Shown here: positions 47,308-64,000 of the stretch, piece after piece
How positions within the stretch are numbered: the first letter of the stretch is position 1
Layout of the letters: each line of letters starts with the position of its first letter
The notes under the pieces: generated by a model
Database searches by the model: none
Seen by the model: only the letters and a program-made list of their open reading frames with translations
What the model was told of the DNA's origin: nothing
From: a virus
DNA length: 64,000 nt
Reading direction: 5' to 3' (one strand)
IMG/VR virus record: IMGVR_UViG_3300022562_000124
Span: 1 to 64,000 of that record
Position numbers and translations under genes: made by a program

Positions 47308-50145
47308 TTATGCTTTCCTATAATATAGCGTTACCTTAAGACCAGTTGCCCCCGTTCCAGCAGCATCAATATCAAAAGTAATTTCCGCATCATCAGTAAT
47401 AGATGTGGTAGTCAATGTGGTTGGAGTTGTTGCTGTAACTGAAGTCTTTTCTGTAGCATCGATTGATAACTTATCAGTACCAAGAATGCTTGTGCCTTCG
47501 ACATTGATATCAACAGTAACAAGACCACTTGAGCTAGCTGTTTTTAGTGAAGCTCTTGGAATCTGATATAGTTCCATAGCAAATGGTGCTCTAAAGCTTA
47601 CCTTTGAAGCTCCTGTAGTAATTGCTGTACCTTCATCAGAAAGAGCAGTAATAAGGAAAATATCTTGAATACCAGCAGAACCGACATATCCAACACCACC
47701 AATAGGACCCGGAGCAGATTCCTGTACCCATTGTGAAGAGTCGGTGTCTGTGTAATATACGTATCTCTTGCCGTTATCAGAATTATACCAAGTGTCACCC
47801 GGTTGAATTCCTGTTGGTGCTGTGTTACCAACATAGGTCTTGCCAACAGAACCAGTATAACCGATAGAGCCTGTATAACCTACAGAGCCGTCATATCCGC
47901 GAGAACCATCATAACCACGTGAACCATCATAACCCGCACCAGCAGAACCAGTGTAGCCATCCTGACCTTGGAAACCACGTGAACCATCGTAACCACGAGA
48001 ACCAGTGTAGCCCTCAAAACCACGAGAACCAGTATAACCAAATTCACCCTGTGGACCTGTATCACCCTTGGAACCATCATAGCCACGAGAGCCATCATAG
48101 CCTACAGAACCTGTATAGCCTGTTAGACCAACAGAGCCAGAGTAACCAACAGAACCAGTATACCCTAGATCGCCACGATCACCCTTGGAGCCTGTGAAAC
48201 CAACAGAACCAGTATACCCTAGATCGCCACGATCACCAGCAGAACCAGTATAGCCAATGGAACCGTCATATCCACGAGAACCAGTATAACCATCTGTACC
48301 CTGATATCCATCGATACCGCGAGAACCAGTATATCCCGTATCGCCCTGTGGTCCAACAATCTGACCCACATCGTTCCAATTTGTTCCATCATATACCCAA
48401 AGATTTCCGGTAGCAAGATCAATTACAGAGTTACCAGATACGGCAGATGGGTAATAATATTTTAAATATCCGTCTGGATTGTTTGGACCGCCTGTGGGAT
48501 ATACTGCATTAACATCAGGTTCAGAACCAATAATTGTAATTGACGTACCTTGCTCACCCTTGGAACCAGTGTAGCCAATAGAACCATCGTAGCCACGTGA
48601 ACCATCATAGCCTACAGAGCCTGTATAGCCTACAGAACCAGTGTAACCCAGAGAACCGGCATATCCAGTAATACCGGCATCACCCTTGGACCCGGTATAA
48701 CCTAAAGAACCATCGTAGCCAGTATTACCGATTTCACCCTTGGAACCATCGTAACCACGAGAGCCAGTATAACCAGTAATACCTTGTGAACCAGTATAAC
48801 CAATAGAACCAGAGTAACCAAGGTCGCCGCGCTCACCCATAGAGCCAGTATAACCCATCGGCCCTTGAACACCGCGAGAACCAGCATAACCAACAGGAGA
48901 AGGCTTATTAATCCATCTTTGGTTTATACCATCATAACCAAGGTAATCATCATTCTGTGCATCAGTGATTTGTACATCACTTAAGTTACCAAGGTTATAC
49001 CCTGTGCGAAGATTGACAAATACGCTGCCAGATGTAGCTACCCTACTTACTCGTGCAACTTCAATCTTATAATCTGGCGCGGTTGGTTCGGTATCTGTAA
49101 GTTTACCCGGAATGTCGGGATCAAGATATAGTCGTGCACCAGCAAGATAAGCAGTAGTATTTAAATCGTGAACCTTACCATAACTTGTAACATAACCCAA
49201 CTCACCAACATCCATGTCATGGGTAGCGATACCCAAAACGAGATTAGGTCTGAATCCTTCCGAATTCATGTCAGCAGGTTTAAACTGTGTCTGCCCAAGA
49301 TCGTTTACGCCAGCATACATGACAACTTGACCATTATTAATGGCTACGTTAGCAGTACCTTGGGCATGTAATTCCTGACCAAGCTGAAGAACAACTACGT
49401 CATTTAGCTGTAGGTCAACAGTGCCATATCTACTATTCCAAGAAAAGTACTTTGTTGGAGTATTGTTGGCATCATTGGTATTAAGATATAAAACATTCGC
49501 AGTAAGCGAAGTAGCATTGACGCTATTCGCTATAGTTTGACCAATAGCACCCGGAGTTTCCCAAGTCAACCCCTGTAGATAATTTGAATTATTTGCTGTG
49601 TATGAGAATATAGAGTTGACAGCAAAGGTCGCACTGTTTACATTAAGTGTGCTTTCACCTTTACCATATGCATAGTTGGCAACGTTAGCAAAGTAAGCGA
49701 ATTGAGAATTGGTTGCATAAACGGCACTGCGAACATCAAGTTTATCTTCTGTTTTGCCGTATGCATAGACAGAATTATTTGATGTTGCATACTGAAAGAT
49801 ATATGCAAGGTCAAGTGAAATAAACAGATTACCAGAGTTGCCGCCGCCAACAATACCGTCTTGTCCAGTGATAGACAGAATCGGAGTATCCCAGAATACT
49901 CCATTAGAGCCAACGGTCAGTACTTGATTGATGTTACCAATTGTGTTGTTTGCTTCAACATACTTAACGACAAGGTTAGAAGACCAGTATCTTCCCCCTG
50001 AAGTATTGGAGAGCAAAAACTGATTATCTGTTAGAGCAACCCCTAGATTAGGTTCTGCCTGAGAAGGATGTAGGTAAGAATATCTATCAGCAGAAACATC
50101 AGTAGGTAGGGTGACTGATATTCTATCAGATAATAATTTAAACAT
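47308..50145 (-). CDS. long collagen-like tail fibre protein (GYTGS/GYDGS repeats)
   Basis: AEPNLG N-terminal motif, LSDV..DAQN motif, two long Gly-X-Y runs rich in GYT/GYD/GS; one knob module shared with 45298..46395. Confidence 0.85.
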   Translation of the reverse strand: MFKLLSDRISVTLPTDVSADRYSYLHPSQAEPNLGVALTDNQFLLSNTSGGRYWSSNLVVKYVEANNTIGNINQVLTVGSNGVFWDTPILSITGQDGIVGGGNSGNLFISLDLAYIFQYATSNNSVYAYGKTEDKLDVRSAVYATNSQFAYFANVANYAYGKGESTLNVNSATFAVNSIFSYTANNSNYLQGLTWETPGAIGQTIANSVNATSLTANVLYLNTNDANNTPTKYFSWNSRYGTVDLQLNDVVVLQLGQELHAQGTANVAINNGQVVMYAGVNDLGQTQFKPADMNSEGFRPNLVLGIATHDMDVGELGYVTSYGKVHDLNTTAYLAGARLYLDPDIPGKLTDTEPTAPDYKIEVARVSRVATSGSVFVNLRTGYNLGNLSDVQITDAQNDDYLGYDGINQRWINKPSPVGYAGSRGVQGPMGYTGSMGERGDLGYSGSIGYTGSQGITGYTGSRGYDGSKGEIGNTGYDGSLGYTGSKGDAGITGYAGSLGYTGSVGYTGSVGYDGSRGYDGSIGYTGSKGEQGTSITIIGSEPDVNAVYPTGGPNNPDGYLKYYYPSAVSGNSVIDLATGNLWVYDGTNWNDVGQIVGPQGDTGYTGSRGIDGYQGTDGYTGSRGYDGSIGYTGSAGDRGDLGYTGSVGFTGSKGDRGDLGYTGSVGYSGSVGLTGYTGSVGYDGSRGYDGSKGDTGPQGEFGYTGSRGFEGYTGSRGYDGSRGFQGQDGYTGSAGAGYDGSRGYDGSRGYDGSVGYTGSIGYTGSVGKTYVGNTAPTGIQPGDTWYNSDNGKRYVYYTDTDSSQWVQESAPGPIGGVGYVGSAGIQDIFLITALSDEGTAITTGASKVSFRAPFAMELYQIPRASLKTASSSGLVTVDINVEGTSILGTDKLSIDATEKTSVTATTPTTLTTTSITDDAEITFDIDAAGTGATGLKVTLYYRKA

Positions 50146-50609
50146 TAAATGACCCCGATATGTTCGTTAGATAGTTTCTCTTCGGCAGAAGTCCATACGT
50201 CAAATACGTTATTCGCTTCCGCTCTAACCTGAATAGCATCCCCGTTCAATGAGTCGGGATTTCTCTTAAAAATACTTCTACCCTGAATAGGAATAAAAGC
50301 AGTGTCATATGGAGGCACAGAAATTTTACCAAAGCTAATCGCAACATTCGCTTCAGTATAAAGCTGAACTTCAACCCAATAAGTATTTGCTGTCTTGTTT
50401 CTTGCGGAGATAGGAGTAATGAAGAATACTTCACCCGGTCTTACGGCACGAGTGGTGTCCGTAGGGTCTCTATTGGCAAATGTGTTTGAAGGATCAGGAA
50501 CCGAAAAGTCTGGTGCTTCCGCAATGGTTTCATAATTGGTTGTTACATCAACTTTAGTAACCAAAAGCGGCTTTCCTGTTGATGGTGTCTTACACTTAAT
50601 TCTTGTCAC
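50145..50609 (-). CDS. hypothetical virion structural protein
   Basis: 154-aa beta-rich ORF coupled between two large virion genes; GTG start. Confidence 0.75.
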   Translation of the reverse strand: MTRIKCKTPSTGKPLLVTKVDVTTNYETIAEAPDFSVPDPSNTFANRDPTDTTRAVRPGEVFFITPISARNKTANTYWVEVQLYTEANVAISFGKISVPPYDTAFIPIQGRSIFKRNPDSLNGDAIQVRAEANNVFDVWTSAEEKLSNEHIGVI

Positions 50610-53600
50610 TTAGAAACTCCTTGAAATGGCGGTCTTCGTTGCTATTCTATTTACCGCAGTATCAAATGGTGGACCAGAAAGTTCACCAGTATCAGCATTA
50701 ATTTGCATACCACCAACGAACAGCGCGGAACCCTGATCATCCTGTCCACTTGCAATAACAATACCCTGATCCAGTTCCAAAATACTATCTTGGATAGTAG
50801 CTTGGTTTAATACTGGTGGAATCTTTGTAAGAGCAACACCAGCAAGAACAGCAGTCCAAGTATGACCAATCGCAGTAATGACAGATGGCTGTACAGTAAA
50901 GGACGGGTTTTTCGCAGTATATATCAAAGCAGCAATCAACGAAGAAATAATATCTCTTGTAGTGTTATTTATATTAAGTGCGTTTATATCGTCTCTCATC
51001 GTATTCCATGAGAAGATGAATGCACTAAGCTTATCAGCATCAATAACACTGACACCATTGGTATCAAAGAATCCCTTGGCAAAGTCAAGTGCTGGCTTTT
51101 CATTTGCTGACTGTAGAACCCATGTCAATACTTGAATAAGGTTTCCTGCGTCTCGTCTTGTGTAAGCTTCGTCTTGTGCTGTCCAACCAGTTGTGTATCC
51201 ACCATCAACCAGAGCATTCCACATACTATCAATAATAGCTTGTCTTGCTGCAAAGATTGTGGTAGCATCTGAGGATTGTTGTGACAATAGAGTTGTGACA
51301 AATGAAGGATAACGAAGCGTGAATTCAATTGAGGTTAAGAACTCATCGACCATCGTAGCCGCACTTCTGCTTACACCCGGAATGCTATAAACATAATTTC
51401 TGATATAACGATAGCAGAATAGGAATGCTTCTAGTTCGTTTGAAGGGAATACAGCAGTACCATTTGCATAGTACAGACTCTTTACGAAATTAATAATGTA
51501 TGTTTGATCAGCGTTCTGAAGTGCTCTTGTTATTGCTAGCAATAGTGTTGCGGCATCACGGCGAGTGAATGCTTCTAGCTCATTAGACCATCCGGCAGCA
51601 AGCCCTTCTCTGTAAAGCTGATACCACATACCGTCAATAATATCTTGCTGTGCCGCAGTGATTGCACTAGCAGCATCTGTCTGTGTGGTAAATGCAGTTT
51701 GAAGCAGAACAGGATATTCTACAGTTGCCACAAGAGCATCGAAAATCTTATCGACAACCGTCTTGACAGAATTGTCAATTGATAATAGATTGATGTTTGT
51801 GTTTAGATAATCGTATGCAAATAGGAATGCGGATTTCTTTGATGGCTCAATTACTGAGGTACCATCAAGGTAGAACAATCCTCTAATAAATGTACGCAGG
51901 TAATTTTCATTGCCTGTTTGAAGTGTTCTTGCAATTGTATTAAGAAGATTTGTTGCGTCTCTCTTAGTTAGCTGCTCTTCTTCGGCTGTCCAAAGCTCAA
52001 CATAGTCATTGTCTACAAGAGCAGTCCACATACCATTTACTAGGGTGGTAGATGCTGTAACGATTTCATTACCCGCAAGAACTTGTAGTGCAGGGATAGA
52101 AGTCAATGGTGTTGACGTAATTGCATCAGCAATGATTCCAGAAATTTCCGTAGAAATAGTTGTTTTTGAATTGACAGATATAGCTAATGCATTTAAAGCA
52201 GTGTCAATATAATTGAATCCAAATTCAAATGCGTCTAGCTTGTCTGAGTCGATTACAGTATATCCAAAAACATCAAACAATCCCCATCTGAAGCTATCGA
52301 TGTAGCTCTTGTCTCCTGTATGAAGGTATCCAGCAAGAGCCTGAATTAATAGGCCAGAATCTCTTTTAGTAAATTCTTCATCTTGTGGTGTCCATCCAGC
52401 GGTATATCCGCCATTTACAAGAGCAGTCCACATATCATTAATGATAGTTGTTTTAGCAGCATCTACAACTAGAGCATCTTCAATTCCGGTCACAATATTT
52501 GAAGTGGCAGGTGTTGACACCATGTCACTTACGAGTGTAAAAGATGATGAAACAATTGTCTGTGCGCCTGAAGTCATACCGGGTAAAGTATTGATTTCAG
52601 TTTCAAGATAACCATATGACGCTAGCACGGCATCTACAACAGCAGGAGAAAATACGGAAGTGCCATCATATAGCAACAGACCTCTCGCAAAGTTTTCGAC
52701 ATATTTACTGTCGCCAGTGCGTAGAGTCCCTACGATTGCTTCGATCAAATTTCCAGCATCGCGCTTGGTGAAATCTTCCTGTTCCTGTGTCCATCCTGTG
52801 ACGTAATTGTTGTTGACAAGTTCTGTCCACATGTTATCAATAATAGATTGTTTTACGCCAATGACGATATCGCCAGAAGCAACTTCCAAGGAACCTGATG
52901 CAGTATATGAAACCGCCTGAGGAAGCACAGCATTGGCTGGTGCCTGTGGATCGATTACACTGGTATTTTCGACTTCTGTTGGTGAAACAAGCTGTCTTGT
53001 TCCCTTTGAAATCATGGTGTAGTCACCAAACTGTGTAGAACAGGATGAAAGAATAATTTGACCGCCGCTTAGAGCATAGAAGTGCTTATGTGCCCAGATA
53101 GAAACAGCGTTAACAGCGTTGATAAGAGCACCATTCTTAGCGCAGTACCCAATACCATTCTGTGTGACAGGAGTAGCACCCCATGTCATGATGTTAGGGA
53201 ATATGGAGTATGGTGAGCATACAGCGCCATCAGCAAGAACAACGCCGCCGCCCTTGCCTACTAGAGGGTTTCCGTTATCTCTGTCAAGTGGTGGAGCAAT
53301 ATAATCCCATGATGGAATTCTTCTGATAGCGCACTTGTGGGCATATGGTGTACGAACAATGACTGCACCCGGTCTGAATGAGAAAGCGAATCCTTCTGTA
53401 GGATCGTCAAAGTCATCAACCTCAAACCCTTCAATCATCAAGCCTTCAACAAAGCAACCAGAACCCATTCTGAATACGTTTCTTTGTTCGTATCCAGCTA
53501 CTGGACGGATAAATACAGTACGGTGAACAGAACGAATTGCACAGTTGTCTGGCATGTCAATGTGACCTTGAGTATAGTATGTACCCGGCCCAATGTCAAT

Positions 53601-53912
53601 TAGGGTAGGTATGCCATTTCTCAATGCTACTGCTTCCATCGCCCTTTCAATAGTGGCAAAAGCTCTTTCCCAAGATGTACCTTCGTTGTTTACATCGTCG
53701 CCATTGACTGATACATAGAATGTATTTCCAACGGGAACTTTGCTGACAAACTGTACGATTTCGTCAACAGGATCGCCCTCGACCTCATATCTACGGCGAG
53801 TAAAAATCTTCCCGTCATAAATGTTGAGAGCAATTTCACCTAGCAACAAATCACTGACTGTAGGTGTTACGCCAGTATTGGAGCTACGCTTAAATAAGAT
53901 TTTATCCGCCAT
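50610..53912 (-). CDS. large late virion protein: fibre-attachment N-motif, beta-helix-like region, five tandem phycobiliprotein/globin-like repeats
   Basis: KILFKRS....P....L..GEIALN..DGKIF head; FYVSVNGDD...G.SW..AFATIE.A; five about 134-aa repeats II..MW..L....Y..GW...E..T(K/R)RDA..L.......L..G; C-terminal SGQDDQG..FVG...INADTG. Start moved to the ATG at 53912. Confidence 0.8.
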   Translation of the reverse strand: MADKILFKRSSNTGVTPTVSDLLLGEIALNIYDGKIFTRRRYEVEGDPVDEIVQFVSKVPVGNTFYVSVNGDDVNNEGTSWERAFATIERAMEAVALRNGIPTLIDIGPGTYYTQGHIDMPDNCAIRSVHRTVFIRPVAGYEQRNVFRMGSGCFVEGLMIEGFEVDDFDDPTEGFAFSFRPGAVIVRTPYAHKCAIRRIPSWDYIAPPLDRDNGNPLVGKGGGVVLADGAVCSPYSIFPNIMTWGATPVTQNGIGYCAKNGALINAVNAVSIWAHKHFYALSGGQIILSSCSTQFGDYTMISKGTRQLVSPTEVENTSVIDPQAPANAVLPQAVSYTASGSLEVASGDIVIGVKQSIIDNMWTELVNNNYVTGWTQEQEDFTKRDAGNLIEAIVGTLRTGDSKYVENFARGLLLYDGTSVFSPAVVDAVLASYGYLETEINTLPGMTSGAQTIVSSSFTLVSDMVSTPATSNIVTGIEDALVVDAAKTTIINDMWTALVNGGYTAGWTPQDEEFTKRDSGLLIQALAGYLHTGDKSYIDSFRWGLFDVFGYTVIDSDKLDAFEFGFNYIDTALNALAISVNSKTTISTEISGIIADAITSTPLTSIPALQVLAGNEIVTASTTLVNGMWTALVDNDYVELWTAEEEQLTKRDATNLLNTIARTLQTGNENYLRTFIRGLFYLDGTSVIEPSKKSAFLFAYDYLNTNINLLSIDNSVKTVVDKIFDALVATVEYPVLLQTAFTTQTDAASAITAAQQDIIDGMWYQLYREGLAAGWSNELEAFTRRDAATLLLAITRALQNADQTYIINFVKSLYYANGTAVFPSNELEAFLFCYRYIRNYVYSIPGVSRSAATMVDEFLTSIEFTLRYPSFVTTLLSQQSSDATTIFAARQAIIDSMWNALVDGGYTTGWTAQDEAYTRRDAGNLIQVLTWVLQSANEKPALDFAKGFFDTNGVSVIDADKLSAFIFSWNTMRDDINALNINNTTRDIISSLIAALIYTAKNPSFTVQPSVITAIGHTWTAVLAGVALTKIPPVLNQATIQDSILELDQGIVIASGQDDQGSALFVGGMQINADTGELSGPPFDTAVNRIATKTAISRSF

Positions 53913-53966
53913 GGTATCCCTTAATAAATAGATGTGTGCGAACACGGTTCGTAGTAATCTGTCATT

Positions 53967-53974
53967 TATTTATA
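53967..53974 (-). promoter_or_regulatory. T4-type late promoter heading the 53912-46421 virion operon
   Basis: Exact TATAAATA. Confidence 0.82.
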
Positions 53975-54007
53975 ATAGATACTTTTTGTTGAAGAAGTGA
54001 GAACGAA

Positions 54008-57000
54008 ATGAAAATTTGTTTTATTGATACCCTAGGTCTTTGCTATGACGGCACTACGCTAAGCAAGCGTGGCTTAGGTGGCTCAGAATCAGCCGTCATC
54101 CTCATGTCAAAAGAACTTGCCAAGATTGGGTTTTCTGTCACAGTTTATAATGACTGTACTTCGGATGATACTAAACCCGGAGTATATGATGGTGTAACCT
54201 ATCGTCCTTTAAAGTCTGTTGAAACGGATGCACCAGACTATGACGTAATGATTGGTTCCCGCTCTGTAGCTGCATTTGCACCCGCATACATGAAAGAGCG
54301 TTTTAAAACATTCTCATACGTTCCAGACTTTACCAGATTCCAGCAGAATATCAAGCACAAGATTTTGTGGATGCATGATACTTTCTGCGATGGTGACGAT
54401 TTAATTGAGCCGTTCCTACTTGACGGTTTAATCAATGAAGTTTTCGTTCTCTCTGACTTCCATCTTGACTATGTGACAAACTGTGATCATGGTAAGAAGC
54501 GCATGTTCGAAGTCCTGAAGCGTTATATGTTCCAGACTCGCAACGGCATTGGTGCGATGAATCCCGGCTGGATCGATATCAAGGACAAGGACCCCAATCT
54601 ATTTGTCTACAATTCATCCCTCACAAAGGGCATGGTCCCGCTTGTAAACGATATCTGGCCTAAAGTCAAGGAACAAGCACCAGACGCTAAGCTCATTGTG
54701 ATTGGCGGTTTCTATCGTTTTCGTGAAGGACATACACCCGATCAGCAGGAACTAGATTGGCGCGAAATGGTCAAGCGCAATGAAAACGCAGGGCTTGACA
54801 TTACATTCACTGGTGTTATACCACAGCAAGAAATTTCTGATATCCTTCGCAAGGCATCGTACATGATTTATCCATGTGCATTCCCTGAGACGTTTGGTAT
54901 CTCCACACTAGAAGCATTGGCGCACAACGTTCCTATCATTACCTGTAACTTTGGTGCAGAAGAAGAAACCGCTATTGACTCTGCGTCATATAAGATTCCG
55001 TTCCCTGTTGAACCTAATGGTCTATTCCCATGGGTAAACAAGGAAGATCAGGTTAACCGCTTCGTTGACATGACACTTCGCGCTTATTATGACAAGTATC
55101 TACATCAGCAAAAGATGTACGCATGTAATGCCGTCAAAGACATTTGTGGATGGAATTCTGTTGCCAAGCAGTGGAAGCAGCACCTATTCCATAAACTAGG
55201 CGAATTCTTGCCAGTTGACGAGTATCGTGAAGTTCAAAAGATTAATCATGATGTTCGTAAGACATTTGGTCGCCGCTTCACAAATCTTGAAGAGCTACAG
55301 GAACCAAGACAAAGACAAAAAGAAATTGCGATTCTGACAGCCGTGTATAATGCAGAAGATTATGTTGGTAAGTGTATTCGCTCTGTTGCTGCACAGGACT
55401 ATTACGATTATACAATGTACATCGTAAATGATGCATCTACGGATAACACCCTAAATGCAATTAAACAGACAATTAATTCTTTACCAGAAAAGATTCGTCA
55501 TAAGTTTGTTGTCATTAACAACGAAGAAAATATCGGTGCTGTAGCTAATCACTACAAGATCATCGATGAATATCTTGGTGAAGAGCAGTTCATCATGATC
55601 CTAGATGGTGATGATTGGCTTGTCAATGATCCAAACATTTTCCATAAGTACAACAATCTCTATCATGATGGTGCAGAGTTTACCTATGGGTCATGTTGGT
55701 CTCTTGCTGACAACATTCCTCTCATCGCTCAGCCATATCCGCCAGAGGTAAAGGAAGCACGTTCTTATCGTGACTACAAGTTTAATTGGAACATGCCATA
55801 TACTCACCTTCGCACTTTCCATGCTAAGCTTCTAAGAGGGCTTGACAGCAGTGATCTAATGGTGAATGGAGAATGGCCAAAGGCTGGTGGTGATACCGCA
55901 CTATTCTATCACTTGATCGAAAAGGCTGATCCCGATAAGATCGTATGTGTGCCAGATGTTGTTTATGTTTATAACGACAAGAATCCATTGAACGACTATA
56001 AGATCAATGGCGATGAGCAGACCAAGACAGCGAATGCTATTATGGGCAAGGGCAAGGCCGTGGAGAAGTTTTCTGTCATTGTGCCTACCATGTGGCGCTG
56101 TAAGGACGTATTCTCTAAGGCACTACAGAGCTATATCGATCATGACTTGGTAGATGAAATCATCATCATTAATAATGACAAGAAAGAAACACCAAACTGG
56201 CTAGGACTTGATCATCCTAAAATCAAGATGCTAACTCAGGAGCAAAACATTTACTGTAACCCTGCATGGAATCTTGGTGCGGAAGTTGCCGTAAACAATA
56301 AGCTATGTTTTGTCAACGATGATATTGAATTTGACACCAAGCTATTCGATAAGATTCATTCTCGTGTCATTCCAGAACTTGGTGTTCATGGTATGGTGAC
56401 AGGGGAAGAAAAGTTTGGCCATCCACAGTCAACGGACTTTTCCATCGACTTTACAAAGTGGTATTGGGGTGATAATATTCATGGATTTGGGCAGTTATTC
56501 TTTGTCCACAAGCACAATTGGATTCCAGTACCAGAAGGTCTAGACCTTTATTATGGTGACGATATGATATTCCATCAGCATCTTCATCGCGGTCTAGATA
56601 ATTACCTAATCTACAATCTTCGTTTCTATTCACCAATGGCACAGACAACTTCCGATCCTGCTATTCGTGGAAACAAGATTGAAACAGAACGTCCTATTTT
56701 TGACAAGTGGATGAGCGAAAACCAACTAATGAGTATTACTCAATGGTTGCGCCCAGAACCAACACCAGAGGAAGCAGTAGTACCAGTTATGGACCAAAGA
56801 GTAAAGCGCATTCTAATCGCAATTCCATGTAAGAATGATATCGAAGCTGATACATTTAAATCGATTTATGACCAGATCATTCCAGATGGTTATGAGACCG
56901 ATTTCCAGTACTTCTATGGTTATGCCGTAGATCAGGTTCGCAACTTGATTGCAGATTGGACAGTCAATGGTTATGATTACCTATTCGCTGTTGACCATGA

Positions 57001-58762
57001 CATTACCTTTGCCCCTGACACATTAGCAAAGCTTCTATCACATGACAAGCCTGTGGTTGGCGGTATCTATCGTCAAAGACTAGAACCACAGCGCCTTGAA
57101 GTTTACGATCATAACTTTAGAACCCTTGCTTATGAAGAACTACATGGTAAAGGATTAGTTGAGATTGGTGGTCTAGGGTTTGGCTGCGTTCTTGTCAAGA
57201 GAGAAGTATTTGCTGATATCGGATATCCACAATTTGTATATCATCAGGCACTTCGTCACGAACACACGTTCAGCGAGGATTTGGATTTCTGTTGCAAGGC
57301 ACGTGACAAAGGATACACCATCTGGTGCGATACGTCAATAGTATGTGGTCATATTGGCCGTCACACCTATCAGATTTCGTTACCCGCAAATTTTAATCAG
57401 CAGGTAGATGTAGTAGAAGAAAAACTACTTAAGATCGCGTCTGAAAAGCATCTACCTGAGGGTCTTGTAGAGTACACCAACAACCTTGACATTGACGCGC
57501 CCAAGGTTATCTATGATATCGGAGCGAATGCTTTAGAGTGGACCAGACTTGCCAAGAACAAGTGGCCAGAAGCTAAGGTGATTGCCTTCGAAGCCATGGA
57601 CGATTTCAATAAGCTTTATAAGCATTTTGATTTTGATAATTATGTTGGTGTTCTATCTGATCAGGACGGAAAGAAAGTCAAGTTCTATGAGAATCCTTTC
57701 CTTCCATGGGGTAACTCATACTACATGGAAAATGAAAACGAATCTCCACCCGGTTGTGAATTTAATGAAGGACATGCTAAGGTAAAGACTGCCCGTACAC
57801 TTGACGCTATTGTGGCTGAAAGAAACTGGCCTCTTCCTGACATGATCAAGATTGACGTTCAAGGTGCTGAGAAGGATATTTTGAAGGGCGCTGAGAACTG
57901 CCTAAAGAACTGCAACGATATCATCATTGAAATTCAGCATAAGGAATACAATAAAGGTGCTCCTATGCTAGATGAAATGTTTGATTATCTTGCTTCAATT
58001 GGATTCTATCTTGTGACCAATATTCATAAGAAAGAATGTGACGGAGATTACCATTTCAAAAAGATGGATAAGGTTCCTACAAAGGCATTCATTCTACACA
58101 CATCAAATTCAAAGTCAATGGAATATTCGCATACTGCTATTATGTCTTGTGAAAGAGTGGGGATTCAGCCCATATTGTTCAATGGTTTTGAAAATGAAAC
58201 ACCAGAAGAACTATCAAGGATATTTGGGTTTGAATTTGGTTCTGATATGAACCACGGCGCTGCTAGAGCTACCGCAGGGCATTTCAAGATGTGGAATATC
58301 ATTGCTGAGCTTGATGAACCGATCATCGTATTGGAGCATGATGCAATCATGTTACAGCGTATCATGCTGCCAATTCCAGATGGCAAGATCGTTGCTCTAG
58401 GATATAAGCTTCATGATCCTTTTGCCTACGATCATGTCATGGCAGGAGAACCCAAAGAGATAGTTGACATTAAGCGCCATTCTGGTGCACATGCATATGT
58501 CATTACACCAAAGACGGCAAGAATGCTTCTAGATGAGCTAAAGCGTGTAGGTGCACCTAGAGCCATTGACAACTATTACTTTATGAGAATAAACAATCCA
58601 GAGGACACTGAGTCAGAAGTTCCCCTTGCAATTATGGACCCGACACCAGCAATCGGATGGCTTCGTGAATCCACCATCTGGGAAGGATCGTGTGATATCA
58701 ATTATGACTTCTTGGATTCTTTTAAAAGAAACCACCATCCAAAACAGGAAGTCTCTCGTTAG
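54008..58762 (+). CDS. 1584-aa multidomain enzyme: GT4 + GT2 + GT2 + GT2 + FkbM methyltransferase + GT25-like
   Basis: GLGGSESA / ETFGISTLEA (GT4); YNAEDYV..CIRSV..Q, ILDGDDWL (GT2); FSVIVPTMW, FVNDDI (GT2); ILIAIP, FAVDHDI, GFGCVLV, SEDLDFC (GT2); IYDIGAN, IKIDVQGAE (FkbM); VLEHDA, GAHAYVITP (GT25). Confidence 0.88.
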   Translation: MKICFIDTLGLCYDGTTLSKRGLGGSESAVILMSKELAKIGFSVTVYNDCTSDDTKPGVYDGVTYRPLKSVETDAPDYDVMIGSRSVAAFAPAYMKERFKTFSYVPDFTRFQQNIKHKILWMHDTFCDGDDLIEPFLLDGLINEVFVLSDFHLDYVTNCDHGKKRMFEVLKRYMFQTRNGIGAMNPGWIDIKDKDPNLFVYNSSLTKGMVPLVNDIWPKVKEQAPDAKLIVIGGFYRFREGHTPDQQELDWREMVKRNENAGLDITFTGVIPQQEISDILRKASYMIYPCAFPETFGISTLEALAHNVPIITCNFGAEEETAIDSASYKIPFPVEPNGLFPWVNKEDQVNRFVDMTLRAYYDKYLHQQKMYACNAVKDICGWNSVAKQWKQHLFHKLGEFLPVDEYREVQKINHDVRKTFGRRFTNLEELQEPRQRQKEIAILTAVYNAEDYVGKCIRSVAAQDYYDYTMYIVNDASTDNTLNAIKQTINSLPEKIRHKFVVINNEENIGAVANHYKIIDEYLGEEQFIMILDGDDWLVNDPNIFHKYNNLYHDGAEFTYGSCWSLADNIPLIAQPYPPEVKEARSYRDYKFNWNMPYTHLRTFHAKLLRGLDSSDLMVNGEWPKAGGDTALFYHLIEKADPDKIVCVPDVVYVYNDKNPLNDYKINGDEQTKTANAIMGKGKAVEKFSVIVPTMWRCKDVFSKALQSYIDHDLVDEIIIINNDKKETPNWLGLDHPKIKMLTQEQNIYCNPAWNLGAEVAVNNKLCFVNDDIEFDTKLFDKIHSRVIPELGVHGMVTGEEKFGHPQSTDFSIDFTKWYWGDNIHGFGQLFFVHKHNWIPVPEGLDLYYGDDMIFHQHLHRGLDNYLIYNLRFYSPMAQTTSDPAIRGNKIETERPIFDKWMSENQLMSITQWLRPEPTPEEAVVPVMDQRVKRILIAIPCKNDIEADTFKSIYDQIIPDGYETDFQYFYGYAVDQVRNLIADWTVNGYDYLFAVDHDITFAPDTLAKLLSHDKPVVGGIYRQRLEPQRLEVYDHNFRTLAYEELHGKGLVEIGGLGFGCVLVKREVFADIGYPQFVYHQALRHEHTFSEDLDFCCKARDKGYTIWCDTSIVCGHIGRHTYQISLPANFNQQVDVVEEKLLKIASEKHLPEGLVEYTNNLDIDAPKVIYDIGANALEWTRLAKNKWPEAKVIAFEAMDDFNKLYKHFDFDNYVGVLSDQDGKKVKFYENPFLPWGNSYYMENENESPPGCEFNEGHAKVKTARTLDAIVAERNWPLPDMIKIDVQGAEKDILKGAENCLKNCNDIIIEIQHKEYNKGAPMLDEMFDYLASIGFYLVTNIHKKECDGDYHFKKMDKVPTKAFILHTSNSKSMEYSHTAIMSCERVGIQPILFNGFENETPEELSRIFGFEFGSDMNHGAARATAGHFKMWNIIAELDEPIIVLEHDAIMLQRIMLPIPDGKIVALGYKLHDPFAYDHVMAGEPKEIVDIKRHSGAHAYVITPKTARMLLDELKRVGAPRAIDNYYFMRINNPEDTESEVPLAIMDPTPAIGWLRESTIWEGSCDINYDFLDSFKRNHHPKQEVSR

Positions 58763-59567
58763 GAAGAGTACCGCTACTCATATTTGACGCATTGGTGAAG
58801 AAGACTGCTTGCTGACCTTGTAGCTGACCGGCATTATCTGCCCATGATGCAGAGTTGACATTCAAGTCTCCTTCGCCTTTGCCAAACGCATAATTGGCTA
58901 CGTTAGCAGTATATGCAAAGTTTGAAACGTATGAGAAGTTTGCATTAACAGCAAGAACCGCTGTCTGTACTTCTAGGGTATCTTCTGTTTTACCATTAAG
59001 GTAAGTAGAATTATTAGAGGTATACGCAAAGTTTGCATTAACAGCAAATACAGCAGACTCTACGCTAAGTCTATCTTCCGTTTTACCAAATGCATGAATT
59101 GCATTGTTGACAGTAACAAATTCTTCCATGTATGCAGCATTGACGTACAATACCACATTAGCAGCGCCTTGTCCACCACCAGAAAGACCATTACCAGAAT
59201 AAACGGTAGTGATTGTATCTTTCCAATAGGTATGTGTGCCGTTTGAGGCAAGAACCTGATCATTCGCACCAGAACTAGGGCCAGTAGTATTACCAGCCCA
59301 AATAGTAGAAATGTAAAGATTACCTACGGTAAGATTTGGTAGGTTATCAAGTAGTTTTACGTCATATTCAAAAGTATTTGCATTATAGACGAGTGTTGCC
59401 CCGTCTACTCTCTGTGTTTTATTAACACCCGGAAGGTCATCAATAGTTCTGATTTCACGAATCTGATTCTTTACGGTGATTGGATCATTAGCAAGAATCT
59501 TACCGCCCTTTTTATTGACGGTAATCGTGAAGTCTGATTTTTGAACTAAGACATTTGTATTAGACAT
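58722..59567 (-). CDS. virion/fibre-associated protein with NANFAY / GKTED repeats
   Basis: The repeat GK(T/G)E..L.V.SA..A.NANFAY is shared with the N-half of fibre 47308..50145; C-terminal NASNMSSGTLP..RL, LDGG. Confidence 0.75.
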   Translation of the reverse strand: MSNTNVLVQKSDFTITVNKKGGKILANDPITVKNQIREIRTIDDLPGVNKTQRVDGATLVYNANTFEYDVKLLDNLPNLTVGNLYISTIWAGNTTGPSSGANDQVLASNGTHTYWKDTITTVYSGNGLSGGGQGAANVVLYVNAAYMEEFVTVNNAIHAFGKTEDRLSVESAVFAVNANFAYTSNNSTYLNGKTEDTLEVQTAVLAVNANFSYVSNFAYTANVANYAFGKGEGDLNVNSASWADNAGQLQGQQAVFFTNASNMSSGTLPNERLPVLDGGFF

Positions 59568-59895
59568 TACGTGTTACCTGTGGTGTGATTGTTACGATAC
59601 CTTCAAGTACACGAGATACTACATTATCTGTTGAATATAAAACACAGTCATAAACATATCTACCGGGAGAGATTACGCTTGTGGTAGCAGAGTTCATTGC
59701 CAGCGTAACAGTACCAGCTTCAGGAGCAATCAAGACCTGAAAGTCTACCGCAGTGGATGATGTGAAGTATTTACGAAGCTGTGCTTTACCAGTATATCCT
59801 GTTAAGTCAATAGGAGAGGTATTAGCGTCTCTCATATTAATAGTGACTTCGTAATCTACACCCTGATCAATGATTATATTGCTTTTAATTGCCAT
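59560..59895 (-). CDS. conserved T4-like virion protein (small beta-sandwich)
   Basis: NIIIDQG.DY, DLTGYTGKAQLRK, GRYVYD, RVLEGIVTITPQVT. Confidence 0.82.
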   Translation of the reverse strand: MAIKSNIIIDQGVDYEVTINMRDANTSPIDLTGYTGKAQLRKYFTSSTAVDFQVLIAPEAGTVTLAMNSATTSVISPGRYVYDCVLYSTDNVVSRVLEGIVTITPQVTRNV

Positions 59896-59926
59896 GTGTC
59901 TCTTCCAAGAAAATTGTTATTCTGTG

Positions 59927-59934
59927 TATTTATA
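59927..59934 (-). promoter_or_regulatory. T4-type late promoter
   Basis: Exact TATAAATA upstream of 59895. Confidence 0.82.
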
Positions 59935-59963
59935 ACTTGACAGGGAAAAGCATTCTGATATAA

Positions 59964-60497
59964 TCACTGTGTGGGTTTATGATACATTCCTTCTGGATGA
60001 CGATCTTGAATCTCATCCATGATATCCAGTAGTGCTTGGAAACATGCTCTAGCTTCATCGGTGATATCGTCTCTAGTACGGAATGTCTGAAGGAATGCAA
60101 GAGAAGATTTACGATCTTCCCATTCAAGATGTTCTGTAGGGAATCCTTCAAGTCTTCTTCTCATGATTTCACCACCCATTAAATGGGCACCAGTAAGAAC
60201 ATAGATTGCACCAGCAAGTGCCTTTTCATTATCTAGGGTCTTGACATATTCACTAGCAGCGGTAAAAGGTTCAATACCAAGATTCATGGCAACCATGTCT
60301 GATTCGAGTCTTTCTACTCGTCTTACATTATCTGGTACATCTTTGTCAATAACTAAATGAATTTGATGAAGAGCCTGAAGCCAAGCAGCATACCATACTC
60401 TTGGTGGGTTTCCTGTTGACATTGCTCCACCAACAGCATGTTGTTCACAGGCATGATGTAGATCACGTGTTTCTTCCCAAAGTGGTTTCTTTGCCAT
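59964..60497 (-). CDS. heme oxygenase (biliverdin-producing, HemO/BphO-like)
   Basis: Proximal helix LWEETRDLHHACE (heme-ligating His), R..RLE.D, distal helix GAIYVLTGAHLMGGEIM (compare YVLEGSTLGG / YLGDLSGG), C-terminal EARACF. Confidence 0.82.
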   Translation of the reverse strand: MAKKPLWEETRDLHHACEQHAVGGAMSTGNPPRVWYAAWLQALHQIHLVIDKDVPDNVRRVERLESDMVAMNLGIEPFTAASEYVKTLDNEKALAGAIYVLTGAHLMGGEIMRRRLEGFPTEHLEWEDRKSSLAFLQTFRTRDDITDEARACFQALLDIMDEIQDRHPEGMYHKPTQ

Positions 60498-60512
60498 TGT
60501 AATTTACCTCAT

Positions 60513-61154
60513 TTAAAATGTTGTTATATCTGTAACAGGTACGTCAAATTTGAATGTAACGTTCTTTTTAATATTTGTGGGACCATCAAAATCATAACCA
60601 AATGCATCCATATCTATTTGGAATATCGGAGTTACGATATCGATTAATTCTTGGGTGTAGTGTGATCTATAATCGCCACTTGCTTTTGTACTAAAATTGC
60701 CGCGCTGTGGCATCGCTTTGTAATGAAGCATTTGTTCAAATGGAAATCCAAGATTTGAAGAAATTTCGTCTATTGATCTTTCACGATCTTCAAATTTAAA
60801 TATGTGAGCTTTTAACTGCCCGTTTACATCACAAAAATACCCATACTGAGGTCCAGTATATTGTGTAATCTCTTTGGTTACATAACGTTTATTCACCCAT
60901 TCTTCAAAAGAATAATCAATAGACGTAACGTGCTTATGTAGATAATATAGGCTTACTTCACGACTGAATGGATTTCTAACAAATCCAAACGTATAAAAAT
61001 TTGATGGATCAATATCACTTATCATAGCATAAATGGAATGCTTTTGAAGAAAATATTTCCCACCTCGCCATATCAAATATGCTTCTAATGAGGTACCACT
61101 TGTTCTTGGATTGTGAATGAAAATGTATGGTATTTTATTTTCTCTATAAATCAT
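60513..61154 (-). CDS. sulfotransferase (Sulfotransfer_2-like)
   Basis: FIHNPRTSGTSL (5'-PSB), FGFVRNPFSREVSLY (3'-PB), DYRSHY, D..AFGY.F. Confidence 0.88.
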   Translation of the reverse strand: MIYRENKIPYIFIHNPRTSGTSLEAYLIWRGGKYFLQKHSIYAMISDIDPSNFYTFGFVRNPFSREVSLYYLHKHVTSIDYSFEEWVNKRYVTKEITQYTGPQYGYFCDVNGQLKAHIFKFEDRERSIDEISSNLGFPFEQMLHYKAMPQRGNFSTKASGDYRSHYTQELIDIVTPIFQIDMDAFGYDFDGPTNIKKNVTFKFDVPVTDITTF

Positions 61155-61762
61155 GATCTTTCCTTATATGGAACCCAAGCTGTATCACCGTCAGGATTTT
61201 GTATCTTTTGGTAAATAGGAACACCAAAAGTCATATTTTTATAATATTGTTCTTTGACTTCTGATGAAAATTTCTTCGCTTCATCTAAAGACAATGGTTC
61301 TGAGTACTGGCCGCTCAATGGATTGAATACGAAAATATTTTCTGTTATATCGGTATTATTTAAGTCTACCTTTATAGTAGTCTCAAATCCATATTCATCT
61401 AAAATAAATGTGCGGCAATTAAAAAGACCGGGATTATGAAGATGAAGAACATTTTTATATTCTTCGTAAAGGTTCAAAGCATCTTGATATGATGATGCGA
61501 AGTCAAATCCACCAGCAAGATCATTGACACGATATTCCTCAAGATATGTATGGTCATTGTAAAACGAAACTGCTATGGGATTTGATGGTAAAGATTTATA
61601 CCATAAAATCCAATCTTGTGGAACATTATTTTGTAATAAAAATTCCATACCCTCTTCATAGGTAATTTCGTCTTTATTTAAGCTTGCCTTTATGTCAAGA
61701 GTCCATCTGTATGCATCGGCGCATGGCAAGCATTTTTTCAAAAGTTCCTGTGTTATTTTCAT
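61151..61762 (-). CDS. hypothetical protein
   Basis: 203-aa ORF coupled to both neighbours; N-terminal ITQELLKK..PC.DA..W motif. Confidence 0.75.
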   Translation of the reverse strand: MKITQELLKKCLPCADAYRWTLDIKASLNKDEITYEEGMEFLLQNNVPQDWILWYKSLPSNPIAVSFYNDHTYLEEYRVNDLAGGFDFASSYQDALNLYEEYKNVLHLHNPGLFNCRTFILDEYGFETTIKVDLNNTDITENIFVFNPLSGQYSEPLSLDEAKKFSSEVKEQYYKNMTFGVPIYQKIQNPDGDTAWVPYKERS

Positions 61763-62958
61763 TATAGAATAGCTCCAAATACACGGCTAGGATTAAAACC
61801 ACCTATCCAAGATAAAGTCCATGTCCCCCCTGATGGGGGCACATATGTTCCCGGCCAATACCAGCTACCACCATAATAGCCACCGGGAAAGTAATCGCTA
61901 GTGTCAATTGCAGCACCACCAGCGGCACCCGGTTGATCGCCACCTGTAGTATTTAGGGCATTACCACCACCAGCAGCGCCCCAACCGCCGCCGCCCCCGC
62001 CAGCTTGCCCGAAGCCATTGTTACCGTTCCATGTTGGATTACCACCGGTATTATTACTACCGCCACCAGAACCACCAGTTACCAGAACAATAGGATCGGA
62101 AGCGTTGGTTTTTGCCGCAGTGGCCGCGCCGGAACCGCCACCAGAACCACCATTTCCTCCAACACCAGTTTTTGTAGTCGAATTGTTAGTACCAGCGGTT
62201 GGTCCAACTGTTGTGGACCCCGGTATAATACGACCACCACCGCCACCAGCACCAAGCCCACCACTAGCCGCACCGGTTGAGCCTACCTGTCCCGGACCAC
62301 CACCGGGTGTCCATGCTGATGTAGCAGGATCGAATGTGCGACCACCTCGACCACCACCCGCACCGCCGCCCCCGCCAGCCCAACCGCCGCCAGTTGCAGA
62401 GCCAGCAGGACCGGCAGCGCCACCACCGCCGCCACCGCCACCAATATAACCGTTGGTGTTATCGATTGTGGTGTTACAATTTAATTGTAGTGCGACCATA
62501 CCTGCGCTAGCAGGACCAGAGGTCGCCTGATTATTATAATTGGTGTATGAATATCCACCATCACCACCTTGTCCAATAATGAATCCTTTATTAATGATAA
62601 AAAGCATTCCCGGAAAGGTGCCTGTTGAATTATATCCGTTGCTGCCATAAATGAATACTCCGGGAGCAATGATAATTTGTGCATCGCCTGATCCGGGATA
62701 ACCATTAGCAACAGCCCAATTATAAAAATTAAAGTTGGCCTGATTTGTGGTTACAGTTGCCGTCCATATTGCACTAATACCAGCAAACTGTGAAAGTTTT
62801 AATGGGCTTGATGGTGTGCCATAACCAATTTGTGTAAATGATTCTGGCACAATACCACCGCCTCTTCTGTACGCATAGAGGTTGGAAGCAAGTCCCATTC
62901 CTTTACTTGAAAACTCATTTCTCACAGAAGAGAATGATGGGGGATTTGAAACTGCCAT
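61762..62958 (-). CDS. glycine-rich receptor-recognising adhesin (T2/T6 gp38-like)
   Basis: IINKGFIIGQGGDGG, TTIDNTNGYIGGGGGGGG, repeated polyglycine motifs, GGAAI near the C-terminus; immediately follows a fibre with an S74 chaperone. Confidence 0.75.
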   Translation of the reverse strand: MAVSNPPSFSSVRNEFSSKGMGLASNLYAYRRGGGIVPESFTQIGYGTPSSPLKLSQFAGISAIWTATVTTNQANFNFYNWAVANGYPGSGDAQIIIAPGVFIYGSNGYNSTGTFPGMLFIINKGFIIGQGGDGGYSYTNYNNQATSGPASAGMVALQLNCNTTIDNTNGYIGGGGGGGGAAGPAGSATGGGWAGGGGGAGGGRGGRTFDPATSAWTPGGGPGQVGSTGAASGGLGAGGGGGRIIPGSTTVGPTAGTNNSTTKTGVGGNGGSGGGSGAATAAKTNASDPIVLVTGGSGGGSNNTGGNPTWNGNNGFGQAGGGGGGWGAAGGGNALNTTGGDQPGAAGGAAIDTSDYFPGGYYGGSWYWPGTYVPPSGGTWTLSWIGGFNPSRVFGAIL

Positions 62959-64000
62959 TATCTATTCTCCAAATCATCAACTTTCTTAGAAAGTTCCTTG
63001 ACGGCTTCGATCAGTAGTGCTACAAGTCGGTTGTATGTTACAGACTTATAACCAGTTGATTCGTCAAAGTAAACTACTTCAGGAATAAATTGTTCAATTT
63101 GTTGAGCAAGAATGCCTACTTCCACCTTATCGCCATCAAATCCTAGTTTCTGTGCGTTTTCATTCCATGTGTACTTGACACCATCAATGTTCTTGACAAT
63201 ATCAAGTGCATTGTCTATGTAGCCAACAACAGTCTTAAGATTTTGGTCAGAAGCAACGATGAAGTCGCCAGCATAGATTGAAGCTCCGCCAGTAGCCGCA
63301 CTTAGTGTTGTGCTGCCTGTGTAGTATGCTGCATAGTTAATAGTGCCAGCATTTACGATGCCAGTTCCCGGAGGTCCCGCAGGACCGGTTGGACCAGTTG
63401 GCCCCGGACTACCGCTTGGACCAGTTGGCCCCGGAGGACCCGCAGGACCGGCAGGGCCGGTTGCACCAGAGGGACCGGCAGGACCCGCAGGACCGGCAGG
63501 ACCCGCAGGACCGGCAGGGCCAGATGGACCCGCAGGACCGGCAATACCTTGTGATCCAACATAACCGGTTGGTCCGGTTGGTCCACTTGGTCCAGTTGCA
63601 CCAGTTGGTCCAGTTGCACCAGTTGGTCCGGTTGGACCCGCCGCGCCTTGTAGTCCACGAGAACCGGTATACCCTATTGGACCGGGACCGCCCACAGGGC
63701 CAGTAGGACCGGTTGGACCGGCAGGGCCGGTTGGTCCCGGAGGACCCGCAGGACCGGCAGGACCTATTGGACCAGCAGGACCGGTAGAACCCGCAGTGCC
63801 AGATGGACCGGTTGGACCGGCAGGACCGGTTGGGCCAATAGGACCGGTTGCACCAGTTGGACCAGCAGGACCGGTAGGACCAGCAGGACCAGTTAAACCA
63901 ATCGAACCAGTATAACCAACGGTTCCAGAAGGACCAGCCGCACCAGATGGACCGATAGGACCCGGAGCACCAATATCACCTTTAGAACCAGTATAACCCG
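62958..64000 (-). CDS. collagen-like tail fibre with C-terminal intramolecular chaperone (peptidase S74); 5' end outside the window
   Basis: The frame is open from 63998 through the GTG at 63695. Long GPT/GPA/GPS triplet run; [42 protein letters not shown]. Confidence 0.9.

Follow-up and report, generated by a model that had tools for sequence, protein, structure and literature searches.

The 64,000-nucleotide (nt) stretch of viral DNA analysed here (positions 1 to 64,000 of IMG/VR record IMGVR_UViG_3300022562_000124, hereafter the window) carries on its minus strand a tail-fibre-type gene whose product contains five consecutive helical repeats. These repeats are predicted to be globin domains, and their closest structural matches are the phycobiliproteins. 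Each retains the Arg-Asp pair of the CxRD chromophore motif and has Thr in place of the Cys that forms the thioether. Our best overall explanation is that the fibre carries bilins held non-covalently, a reading for and against which the evidence seems to us evenly balanced.

The longest open reading frame (ORF) at this locus spans 50610–53945 on the minus strand, with a GTG start at 53945, and encodes 1111 amino acids (aa; P0001). The true start of the fibre gene is probably the ATG at 53912, giving 1100 aa, because the N-terminus read from there, MADKILFKRSS, agrees with the N-termini of homologues, which begin MA(N/D)..I..KRS. The 98% identical relative P0002 is also 1100 aa long. The motif T[KR]RD occurs exactly five times in this ORF, at residues 393, 526, 660, 794 and 929, a spacing of 133–135 aa or about 400 nt. 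These are, to the nucleotide, the five repeat cores that had been proposed in an earlier sequence-only reading of this DNA. As that reading had also held, every one of the five copies has Thr at the position of the chromophore Cys; R and D do not vary among them. The five all-helical units, of ~134 aa each, are 30–40% identical in pairs, share 11–14 invariant columns and are scored by a family repeat-unit profile at E-values of 4e-44 to 2e-57, far beyond chance. The best of these belongs to repeat 5, the copy nearest to the lone domain of the ~545-aa orthologues. Repetition is seen at the protein level only, since Tandem Repeats Finder detected no ~400-nt period in the DNA. The RD-x14-GD spacing claimed for repeats 1 and 2 is exact in both, and equals that of the phycocyanin beta gene cpcB of Acaryochloris; the corresponding residues in repeats 3, 4 and 5 are GN, AD and AN.

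The AlphaFold2 (AF2) prediction for repeat 1 was based on 44 aligned repeat units, drawn from the window and viral loci and including no phycobiliprotein. The resulting model was confident (predicted local distance difference test, pLDDT, 94.6; predicted template-modelling score, pTM, 0.88) and has helices at residues 4–27, 36–59, 63–70, 83–101 and 108–126, with TKRD at 42–45, early in the long central helix. The helices follow the phycobiliprotein arrangement (A-B-E-F'-F-G-H). When the model was compared with the PDB using Foldseek, the ~46 listed top matches were all phycobiliproteins or the derivative smURFP (TM 0.66–0.76, E 0.015–0.06). A Foldseek-independent alignment to all 48,161 representative chains (VIA-align) gave phycobiliproteins as the top eight matches, with Z scores of 13.3–15.4, to be read with the caveat that helical models can reach Z ~13–14 through common arrangement. 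The best was allophycocyanin, at Z 15.4 and a root-mean-square deviation (rmsd) of 2.3 Å over 119 residues, with model residues 1–126 lying on residues 35–159 of the chain. The bilin domain of ApcE reached 14.2 and phycoerythrins 13.3, followed by the globin domains of photocobilins (12.6 and 12.2), non-heme sensor globins (pXO2-61, DosC and RsbR; 10–12) and ordinary hemoglobins (7–9). The top structural matches covered 119–128 of the 133 residues at rmsd 2.3–2.6 Å, above all other globins. The X-Y helical hairpin is not present in the repeats, the alignments beginning at residue 31–51 of the phycobiliprotein chain, or column 38–40 of the profile. On these models the repeats almost certainly have a globin fold, and its phycobiliprotein-like character, which had been supposed from an alignment by eye, is borne out by the uniformity of the top matches to a single repeat. 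A placement in the bilin-binding clade is suggested by the structural ranking (phycobiliprotein, then photocobilin, then RsbR).

Profiles were also compared by sequence only, using hhalign and nine real phycobiliproteins encoded on cyanobacterial plasmids (Acaryochloris cpcBA, Fischerella apc and Nostoc cpeBA). The T-type repeats alone matched at 35% probability (E 4e-4, 113 columns). After adding the CxRD-type domains of orthologous proteins, the match reached 85.6% (E 5.5e-6, 115 columns), against 0.14% for a control comparison with an alignment of heme oxygenases, an unrelated helical family. Both phycobiliprotein alignments placed [T/C]-x-R-D on C-x-R-D and the Gly at +15 from the Asp on the Gly of GD. 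The by-eye register, in which Thr meets the bilin Cys and R, D and GD each meet their counterparts, is thus regained, and we consider it upheld because the profile method gives the same register, in accord with the structural superposition.

Conservation was assessed over 328 domain copies from 170 representative proteins. The Asp is D in 98% of them, and no core column of the domain is better conserved; the one column that outranks it lies at a boundary and was scored on 66 sequences. The Arg is R in 83%, and K or R precedes it (position 85) in 79%. Where phycobiliproteins have the chromophore Cys, 67% of the copies have Thr, 26% have Cys and 5% have Ala or Ser. The retention of Arg-Asp that had been noted in the window therefore holds across the family, and it aligns with the R and D of real phycobiliproteins.

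A possible source of ligand lies in the same fibre gene cluster, where a 177-aa ORF (Table 1) resembles heme oxygenases. By itself it matches PF01126 at 13.7 bits (E 0.0017), below the cut-off; a joint profile built from it and 11 short viral homologues matches HO-1/HO-2 at E 2e-26, and the divergent subfamily alone matches essentially only heme oxygenases, at E 7e-4. The proximal-His motif is retained. Members of this short (168–188 aa), divergent subfamily sit co-oriented in tail-fibre clusters, also in loci L095–L099. In 17 of 84 loci, corresponding to 13 of 39 non-redundant lineages, a family-specific profile placed a heme-oxygenase-like ORF no more than 5 kb from the fibre gene, without exception on its strand; a rough estimate for random placement in a genome of 150–200 kb is ~2 of 39. 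Often the fibre gene is followed by a ~180-aa ORF, a collagen-like fibre gene, a second ~180-aa ORF and then the heme-oxygenase-like gene. At the level of whole records, a heme-oxygenase match was present in 12 of 40, including 5–6 of the 7 records with a completeness of 60% or more. Of the 40, three, all large, have a heme oxygenase with an adjacent ferredoxin-dependent bilin reductase, and two of these three carry CxRD-type orthologues. The fibre genes are thus linked to bilin biosynthesis, with the copy in the window being a divergent, putative enzyme.

These observations suggest the following explanation. The gene would encode a late tail-fibre or tailspike protein of the virion, made up of an N-terminal attachment segment, a pectate-lyase-like beta-helix, five tandem globins and a C-terminal module. 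Each globin would be a truncated phycobiliprotein-type domain, equivalent to about phycobiliprotein residues 35–160 without the X-Y hairpin, belonging within, or beside, the bilin-binding globin clade (phycobiliproteins; BBAGs, the globins associated with bilin biosynthesis; and photoglobins). The Arg-Asp is kept, and Thr replaces the thioether Cys. As the most likely mechanism, every domain would hold one linear tetrapyrrole non-covalently, so that the fibre would present a stack of five pigments. The simplest ligand would be biliverdin, from the neighbouring heme-oxygenase-like enzyme or from the host. In each domain, binding contacts would run from the conserved Asp to the pyrrole nitrogens and from basic residues to the propionates, as in the Cys-less photocobilins. 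There, a five-helix globin holds biliverdin non-covalently via a key residue, Asp270, and binding is lowered by an Asp-to-His change (PMC10979010); judging from the aligned ranges in VIA-align, D45 of our model falls at about residue 269–270 of photocobilin, near Asp270. Because the Arg-Asp is kept and a heme-oxygenase-like gene is nearby, phage particles may carry bile pigments. Bilin binding by the domains is argued for by the conserved Asp and Arg, by relatives that have the Cys, by the precedent of the photocobilins and by the linkage to heme oxygenase, which together make it at best an even call; any biological role, such as light sensing, photoprotection or another, is speculative.

The sequence-only reading had named heme as a further possible ligand. 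His was not among the conserved columns of domain alignments of 44, 28 and 356 sequences, nor among the 20 best-conserved columns over the 328 domain copies, which argues against heme ligation; with heme globins also low in the structural ranking, this option is unlikely. More generally, the cleft could hold some other ligand: heme or another porphyrin, a carotenoid, or a molecule of the host surface, in which last case the domains would serve for receptor binding or sensing and have nothing to do with bilins. The fold is a versatile one, and sensor and heme globins do match at Z 7–12. Leads from a protein language model to the sensor domains RsbRD_N and HisK_N point the same way, but are weak, their scores of 0.84–0.88 lying under the tool's own reliability line. 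The heme-oxygenase-like protein, having an altered motif, could handle heme and not make biliverdin. Since it is bilin-binding globins in particular that give the best structural matches and share the motif register, and since a His to ligate heme is missing from the conserved columns, we regard a different ligand as improbable.

The domain belongs to a large family. In its basic form, of ~545 aa, the protein has one helical domain, preceded by the beta-helix and followed by a C-terminal module. This module is strongly conserved and common to all family members regardless of globin copy number; 80 viral loci of the basic form were collected. Tandem expansion to 2, 3 and 5 copies occurs. In a profile search of 1.84 billion representative proteins, 176 matched at E ≤ 0.001, the longest measuring 4957 aa and the richest having 11 matched stretches; the family comprises at least 176 clusters at 50% identity. 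Some lineages are nested: beyond about position 83, one to six complete copies interrupt the outer globin domain, whose second half then resumes. This architecture was noted in loci L007, L008, L040 and L083 and in L044, L046, L049, L051, L074 and L075; the last six are orthologues that match the fibre in their N- and C-terminal modules, and in them two to six CxRD domains are nested within a split outer domain of T type. The record itself holds a sixth, more divergent copy (ATRD) outside the window, at record position 67480–67884 on the minus strand. It lies in a 668-aa paralogue (L106, 1198–3204) that has a related beta-helix and a different C-terminal module and resembles P0024–P0026.

Among cultured cyanomyoviruses, the profile search found nine domains in S-PM2 (in S-PM2p091, a 'tail fiber protein', and in a second giant frame), four in P-HM2, four in DSL-LC03 and one in S-SKS1. 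Nearly all of these copies have the Cys, mostly as K-C-x-R-D. The giant tail-fibre proteins are located at 53491–63507 and ~166–170 kb of NC_006820 for S-PM2, and at ~54.7–57.5 and ~83 kb of NC_015284 for P-HM2. Structure matches in BFVD include tail or structural proteins of S-WAM2, S-H9-1, S-CAM1, S-ShM2, S-PM2 and Syn30. As a separate observation, the stop-free 3792-aa frame annotated 'short tail fiber protein' at 165928–177267 of NC_006820 (L115) has 14 tRNA genes placed within it by the feature table, whose coordinates look inconsistent.

Several findings weigh against bilin-carrying globins in the fibre. No match to the phycobiliprotein family PF00502 was obtained at E ≤ 0.001 in the six frames of the record, and the repeat profile found no phycobiliprotein among PDB sequences; the homology is therefore remote. 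Identity to phycobiliproteins is only 10–20%. Neither psbA nor a bilin reductase was found in the record, which is 79.7 kb long and estimated to be 42% complete. The catalytic distal motif GDLSGG reads GAHLMGG in the heme-oxygenase-like protein of the window, and its catalytic activity is therefore uncertain. In cultured phages the domain and heme oxygenase occur apart: S-PM2, DSL-LC03 and S-SKS1 have domains and no heme oxygenase, while P-SSM2 and Mosig have a heme oxygenase and no detectable domain. Indeed, ho1 of P-SSM2 lies 550 nt upstream of a globin-less fibre homologue, PSSM2_293 (NC_006883 213721–216727; L120), the C-terminal half of which showed no relation to the domain profile. Because of this separation, the heme-oxygenase linkage may reflect the fibre module or an island of auxiliary metabolic genes and not the globin itself. 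The Arg-Asp, too, could be kept instead for folding or for contacts within a trimeric fibre.

The first of these findings bear on whether the resemblance to phycobiliproteins reflects ancestry. Convergence would mean that an unrelated five-helix bundle superposes on the globins by chance and that the fit of T-x-R-D on C-x-R-D is coincidental. The low identity and the Foldseek E-values would allow this, as would the Z scores that helical models can attain by their common arrangement. The search of PDB sequences gave a weak match to IpaD only (E 0.003), which we rejected since it covers half of the domain and IpaD is absent from the structural matches. Set against chance are two independent aligners with uniformly phycobiliprotein top matches over the whole domain, above other globins; a sequence-only profile match in the same register, far above that of the helical control; and agreement in the motif, in the G at +15 and in helix order. 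Convergence is thus very unlikely, and remote homology to the bilin-binding globins is likely.

The main rival to bilin binding accepts that homology. The domains would be true phycobiliprotein-like globins without a ligand. They would act as stiff helical spacers or shaft segments, the number of copies determining the length or surface of the fibre, and the Arg-Asp would serve folding or inter-subunit salt bridges in a trimeric fibre. Copy number is indeed freely variable, at 1, 2, 3, 5 and as many as 11 in tandem and nested arrangements, as is typical of fibre spacers, the majority of domains are without Cys, and many domain-bearing phages are without heme oxygenase. The globins are moreover only one of several modules in the fibre, and the tailspike-like beta-helix, which looks polysaccharide-degrading, could alone supply the receptor function. 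However, 98% conservation of a charged helix Asp is unusual among domains otherwise less than 30% identical, and the Arg and another basic residue are retained along with this Asp, as is the exact CxRD in a quarter of the copies. The heme-oxygenase-like linkage in one third of lineages would also need another cause. We therefore rate the spacer explanation as somewhat unlikely, and rank it ahead of a different ligand and, last, convergence.

The assignment of the protein to the virion draws on its other parts and on its surroundings (Table 1). PHROG 17885, 'tail fiber protein', matches aa 12–332 at E 1.2e-18, and tblastn of the N-terminal part against cultured phages gave matches only in cyanophage ORFs for tail fibres or 'gp7'. 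In an AF2 model of the full-length protein, residues ~20–345 form a confident all-beta beta-helix (pLDDT 80–96), for which Foldseek matches were rhamnogalacturonan and pectate lyases, depolymerase tailspikes and the tail fibres of phage 7-7-1. The C-terminal module was modelled as mixed beta/alpha (pLDDT 37–74). Repeat 2 and the C-terminus were poorly modelled (pLDDT 24–50), which we attribute to misaligned repeat columns in the alignment and not to disorder. Pfam gave no hit on the fibre protein, and no Pfam family covers the globin domain; blastn against phage genomes found no match, and whole-protein searches of Pfam and PDB sequences gave nothing useful.

Table 1. Positions in the window of the fibre gene, its predicted parts and associated features (residue numbers in aa).
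Feature	Position	Strand	Remarks
Fibre gene	50610..53912	-	1100 aa from the probable start, ATG at 53912
TATAAATA, T4-type late-promoter-like motif	53967..53974	-	55 nt upstream of ATG 53912
N-terminal fibre adaptor and right-handed beta-helix	52911..53912	-	aa 12-345; PHROG match, model
Globin repeat 1 (predicted)	52494..52892	-	aa 352-484; TKRD at 52758-52769
Globin repeat 2 (predicted)	52092..52493	-	aa 485-618; TKRD at 52359-52370
Globin repeat 3 (predicted)	51690..52091	-	aa 619-752; TKRD at 51957-51968
Globin repeat 4 (predicted)	51285..51689	-	aa 753-887; TRRD at 51555-51566
Globin repeat 5 (predicted)	50880..51284	-	aa 888-1022; TRRD at 51150-51161
Conserved C-terminal module	50613..50879	-	aa 1023-1111; invariant columns among family members
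Divergent heme-oxygenase-like gene	59964..60497	-	177 aa; same fibre gene cluster, 6 kb from the fibre gene

T4-type capsid, portal and sheath genes are present in the window, and the nearest cultured relatives of the capsid protein infect Stenotrophomonas, Pelagibacter, Synechococcus and Methylophilales. The fibre gene is preceded by TATAAATA, which we take to be the T4 late-promoter consensus. Thirteen copies of this motif occur in the window, all on the minus strand, compared with 3.9 expected. One of these copies lies at 50966–50973 (minus strand), within repeat 5 and ~360 nt upstream of the next ORF, where it may be an internal late promoter. Cultured-cyanophage proteins with a homologous domain are annotated as tail fibre or structural proteins. 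A fibre-type N-terminus and beta-helix are thus found within a late structural module, and the PHROG match, the gene position and TATAAATA indicate that the product is very probably a late tail-fibre or tailspike-type protein located in the virion. Directly after the globin fibre gene come a 154-aa ORF (50145–50609, minus strand) and a collagen-like fibre protein of 945 aa (47308–50145, minus strand), and in eight other loci a ~170–190-aa ORF and a large fibre protein likewise come after the fibre gene. Between the fibre gene and the heme-oxygenase cluster lies a 1584-aa ORF on the opposite strand (54008–58762, plus strand).

One possible use of a pigmented fibre is suggested by cultured cyanophages. 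S-PM2, P-HM1 and P-HM2 require light to adsorb, a requirement that does not depend on host photosynthesis, while P-SSM2 and P-SSP7 adsorb in the dark (PMC6628666). S-PM2 and P-HM2 carry CxRD-type domains (nine and four, respectively) in giant tail-fibre proteins, and none were detected in P-SSM2 and P-SSP7; with only four phages compared, this parallel is no more than a lead. If it were followed, the globin arrays of cyanophage-type fibres would be pigment-loaded photoreceptor modules that make adsorption light-dependent, and the heme-oxygenase and bilin-reductase genes of phages would serve at least partly to load virion proteins and not host antennae, a scheme that we consider unlikely at present. 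The purpose of phage heme oxygenase and bilin reductase was left open in PMC11480375, where BBAG-like acceptors are mentioned only as a possibility. The domains are concrete candidates for what phage-made bilins serve, as well as for the light-dependent adsorption of some cyanophages independent of host photosynthesis, and both questions are amenable to bench work with cultured phages. Small globin modules of the Cys-less or CxRD kind could also serve as scaffolds for fluorescent proteins, like smURFP.

Phycobiliprotein-type globins have been known as antenna subunits and, since 2023–2024, also as small bacterial bilin-binding proteins and photoreceptor domains. Here the fold appears in a new setting, as tandem or nested arrays in phage fibre proteins, including those of the cultured phages S-PM2, P-HM2 and DSL-LC03; our literature search found no description of globin-like or phycobiliprotein-like domains in cyanophage or virion proteins. 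The phycobiliproteins (PF00502) have their globin helices in the same order as the repeats between about residue 35 and the C-terminus (Z 13–15, rmsd 2.0–2.6 Å), and share with them the Arg-Asp of CxRD on the helix E equivalent and the Gly 15 residues on; a quarter of the phage-family domains share the Cys as well. They differ in length (160–175 aa, compared with 133 for the phage repeat) and in having the X-Y hairpin, their alpha-beta dimerisation element, and they are free antenna subunits, unlike the fibre-embedded arrays of the phages. Lacking the hairpin, the Cys and a Pfam match, the fibre protein falls outside the phycobiliprotein family in the strict sense, and its domains are best described as a new, virion-borne branch of phycobiliprotein-like globins.

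The BBAGs, remote paralogues of phycobiliproteins that are not part of antennae, are defined by their gene linkage to heme oxygenase or bilin reductases; CXRD is present in some of them and absent from others, and those without it bind biliverdin (Rockwell, Martin and Lagarias 2023, PMC10151467). That paper refers to phages only for the bilin reductases PcyX and PcyA. By description, BBAGs have the fold, the motif logic and the heme-oxygenase-like linkage in common with the phage domains, and differ from them in being small stand-alone bacterial proteins. The photoglobin of photocobilins (PDB 8j2w and 8j2y; Z 12.2–12.6) resembles the repeat in structure and, like it, is without the thioether Cys. 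It is a poorer match than the phycobiliproteins, and occurs as a single copy fused to a B12-binding domain in bacterial photoreceptors. As for the remainder of the protein, beta-helix tailspikes and fibres (PSSM2_293 and Klebsiella and Acinetobacter depolymerases) share the N-terminal adaptor and the right-handed beta-helix, and the gene sits, as for phage fibres, among collagen-like fibre genes behind a late-promoter motif. The known tailspikes, and likewise the P-SSM2 homologue, have no globin domains.

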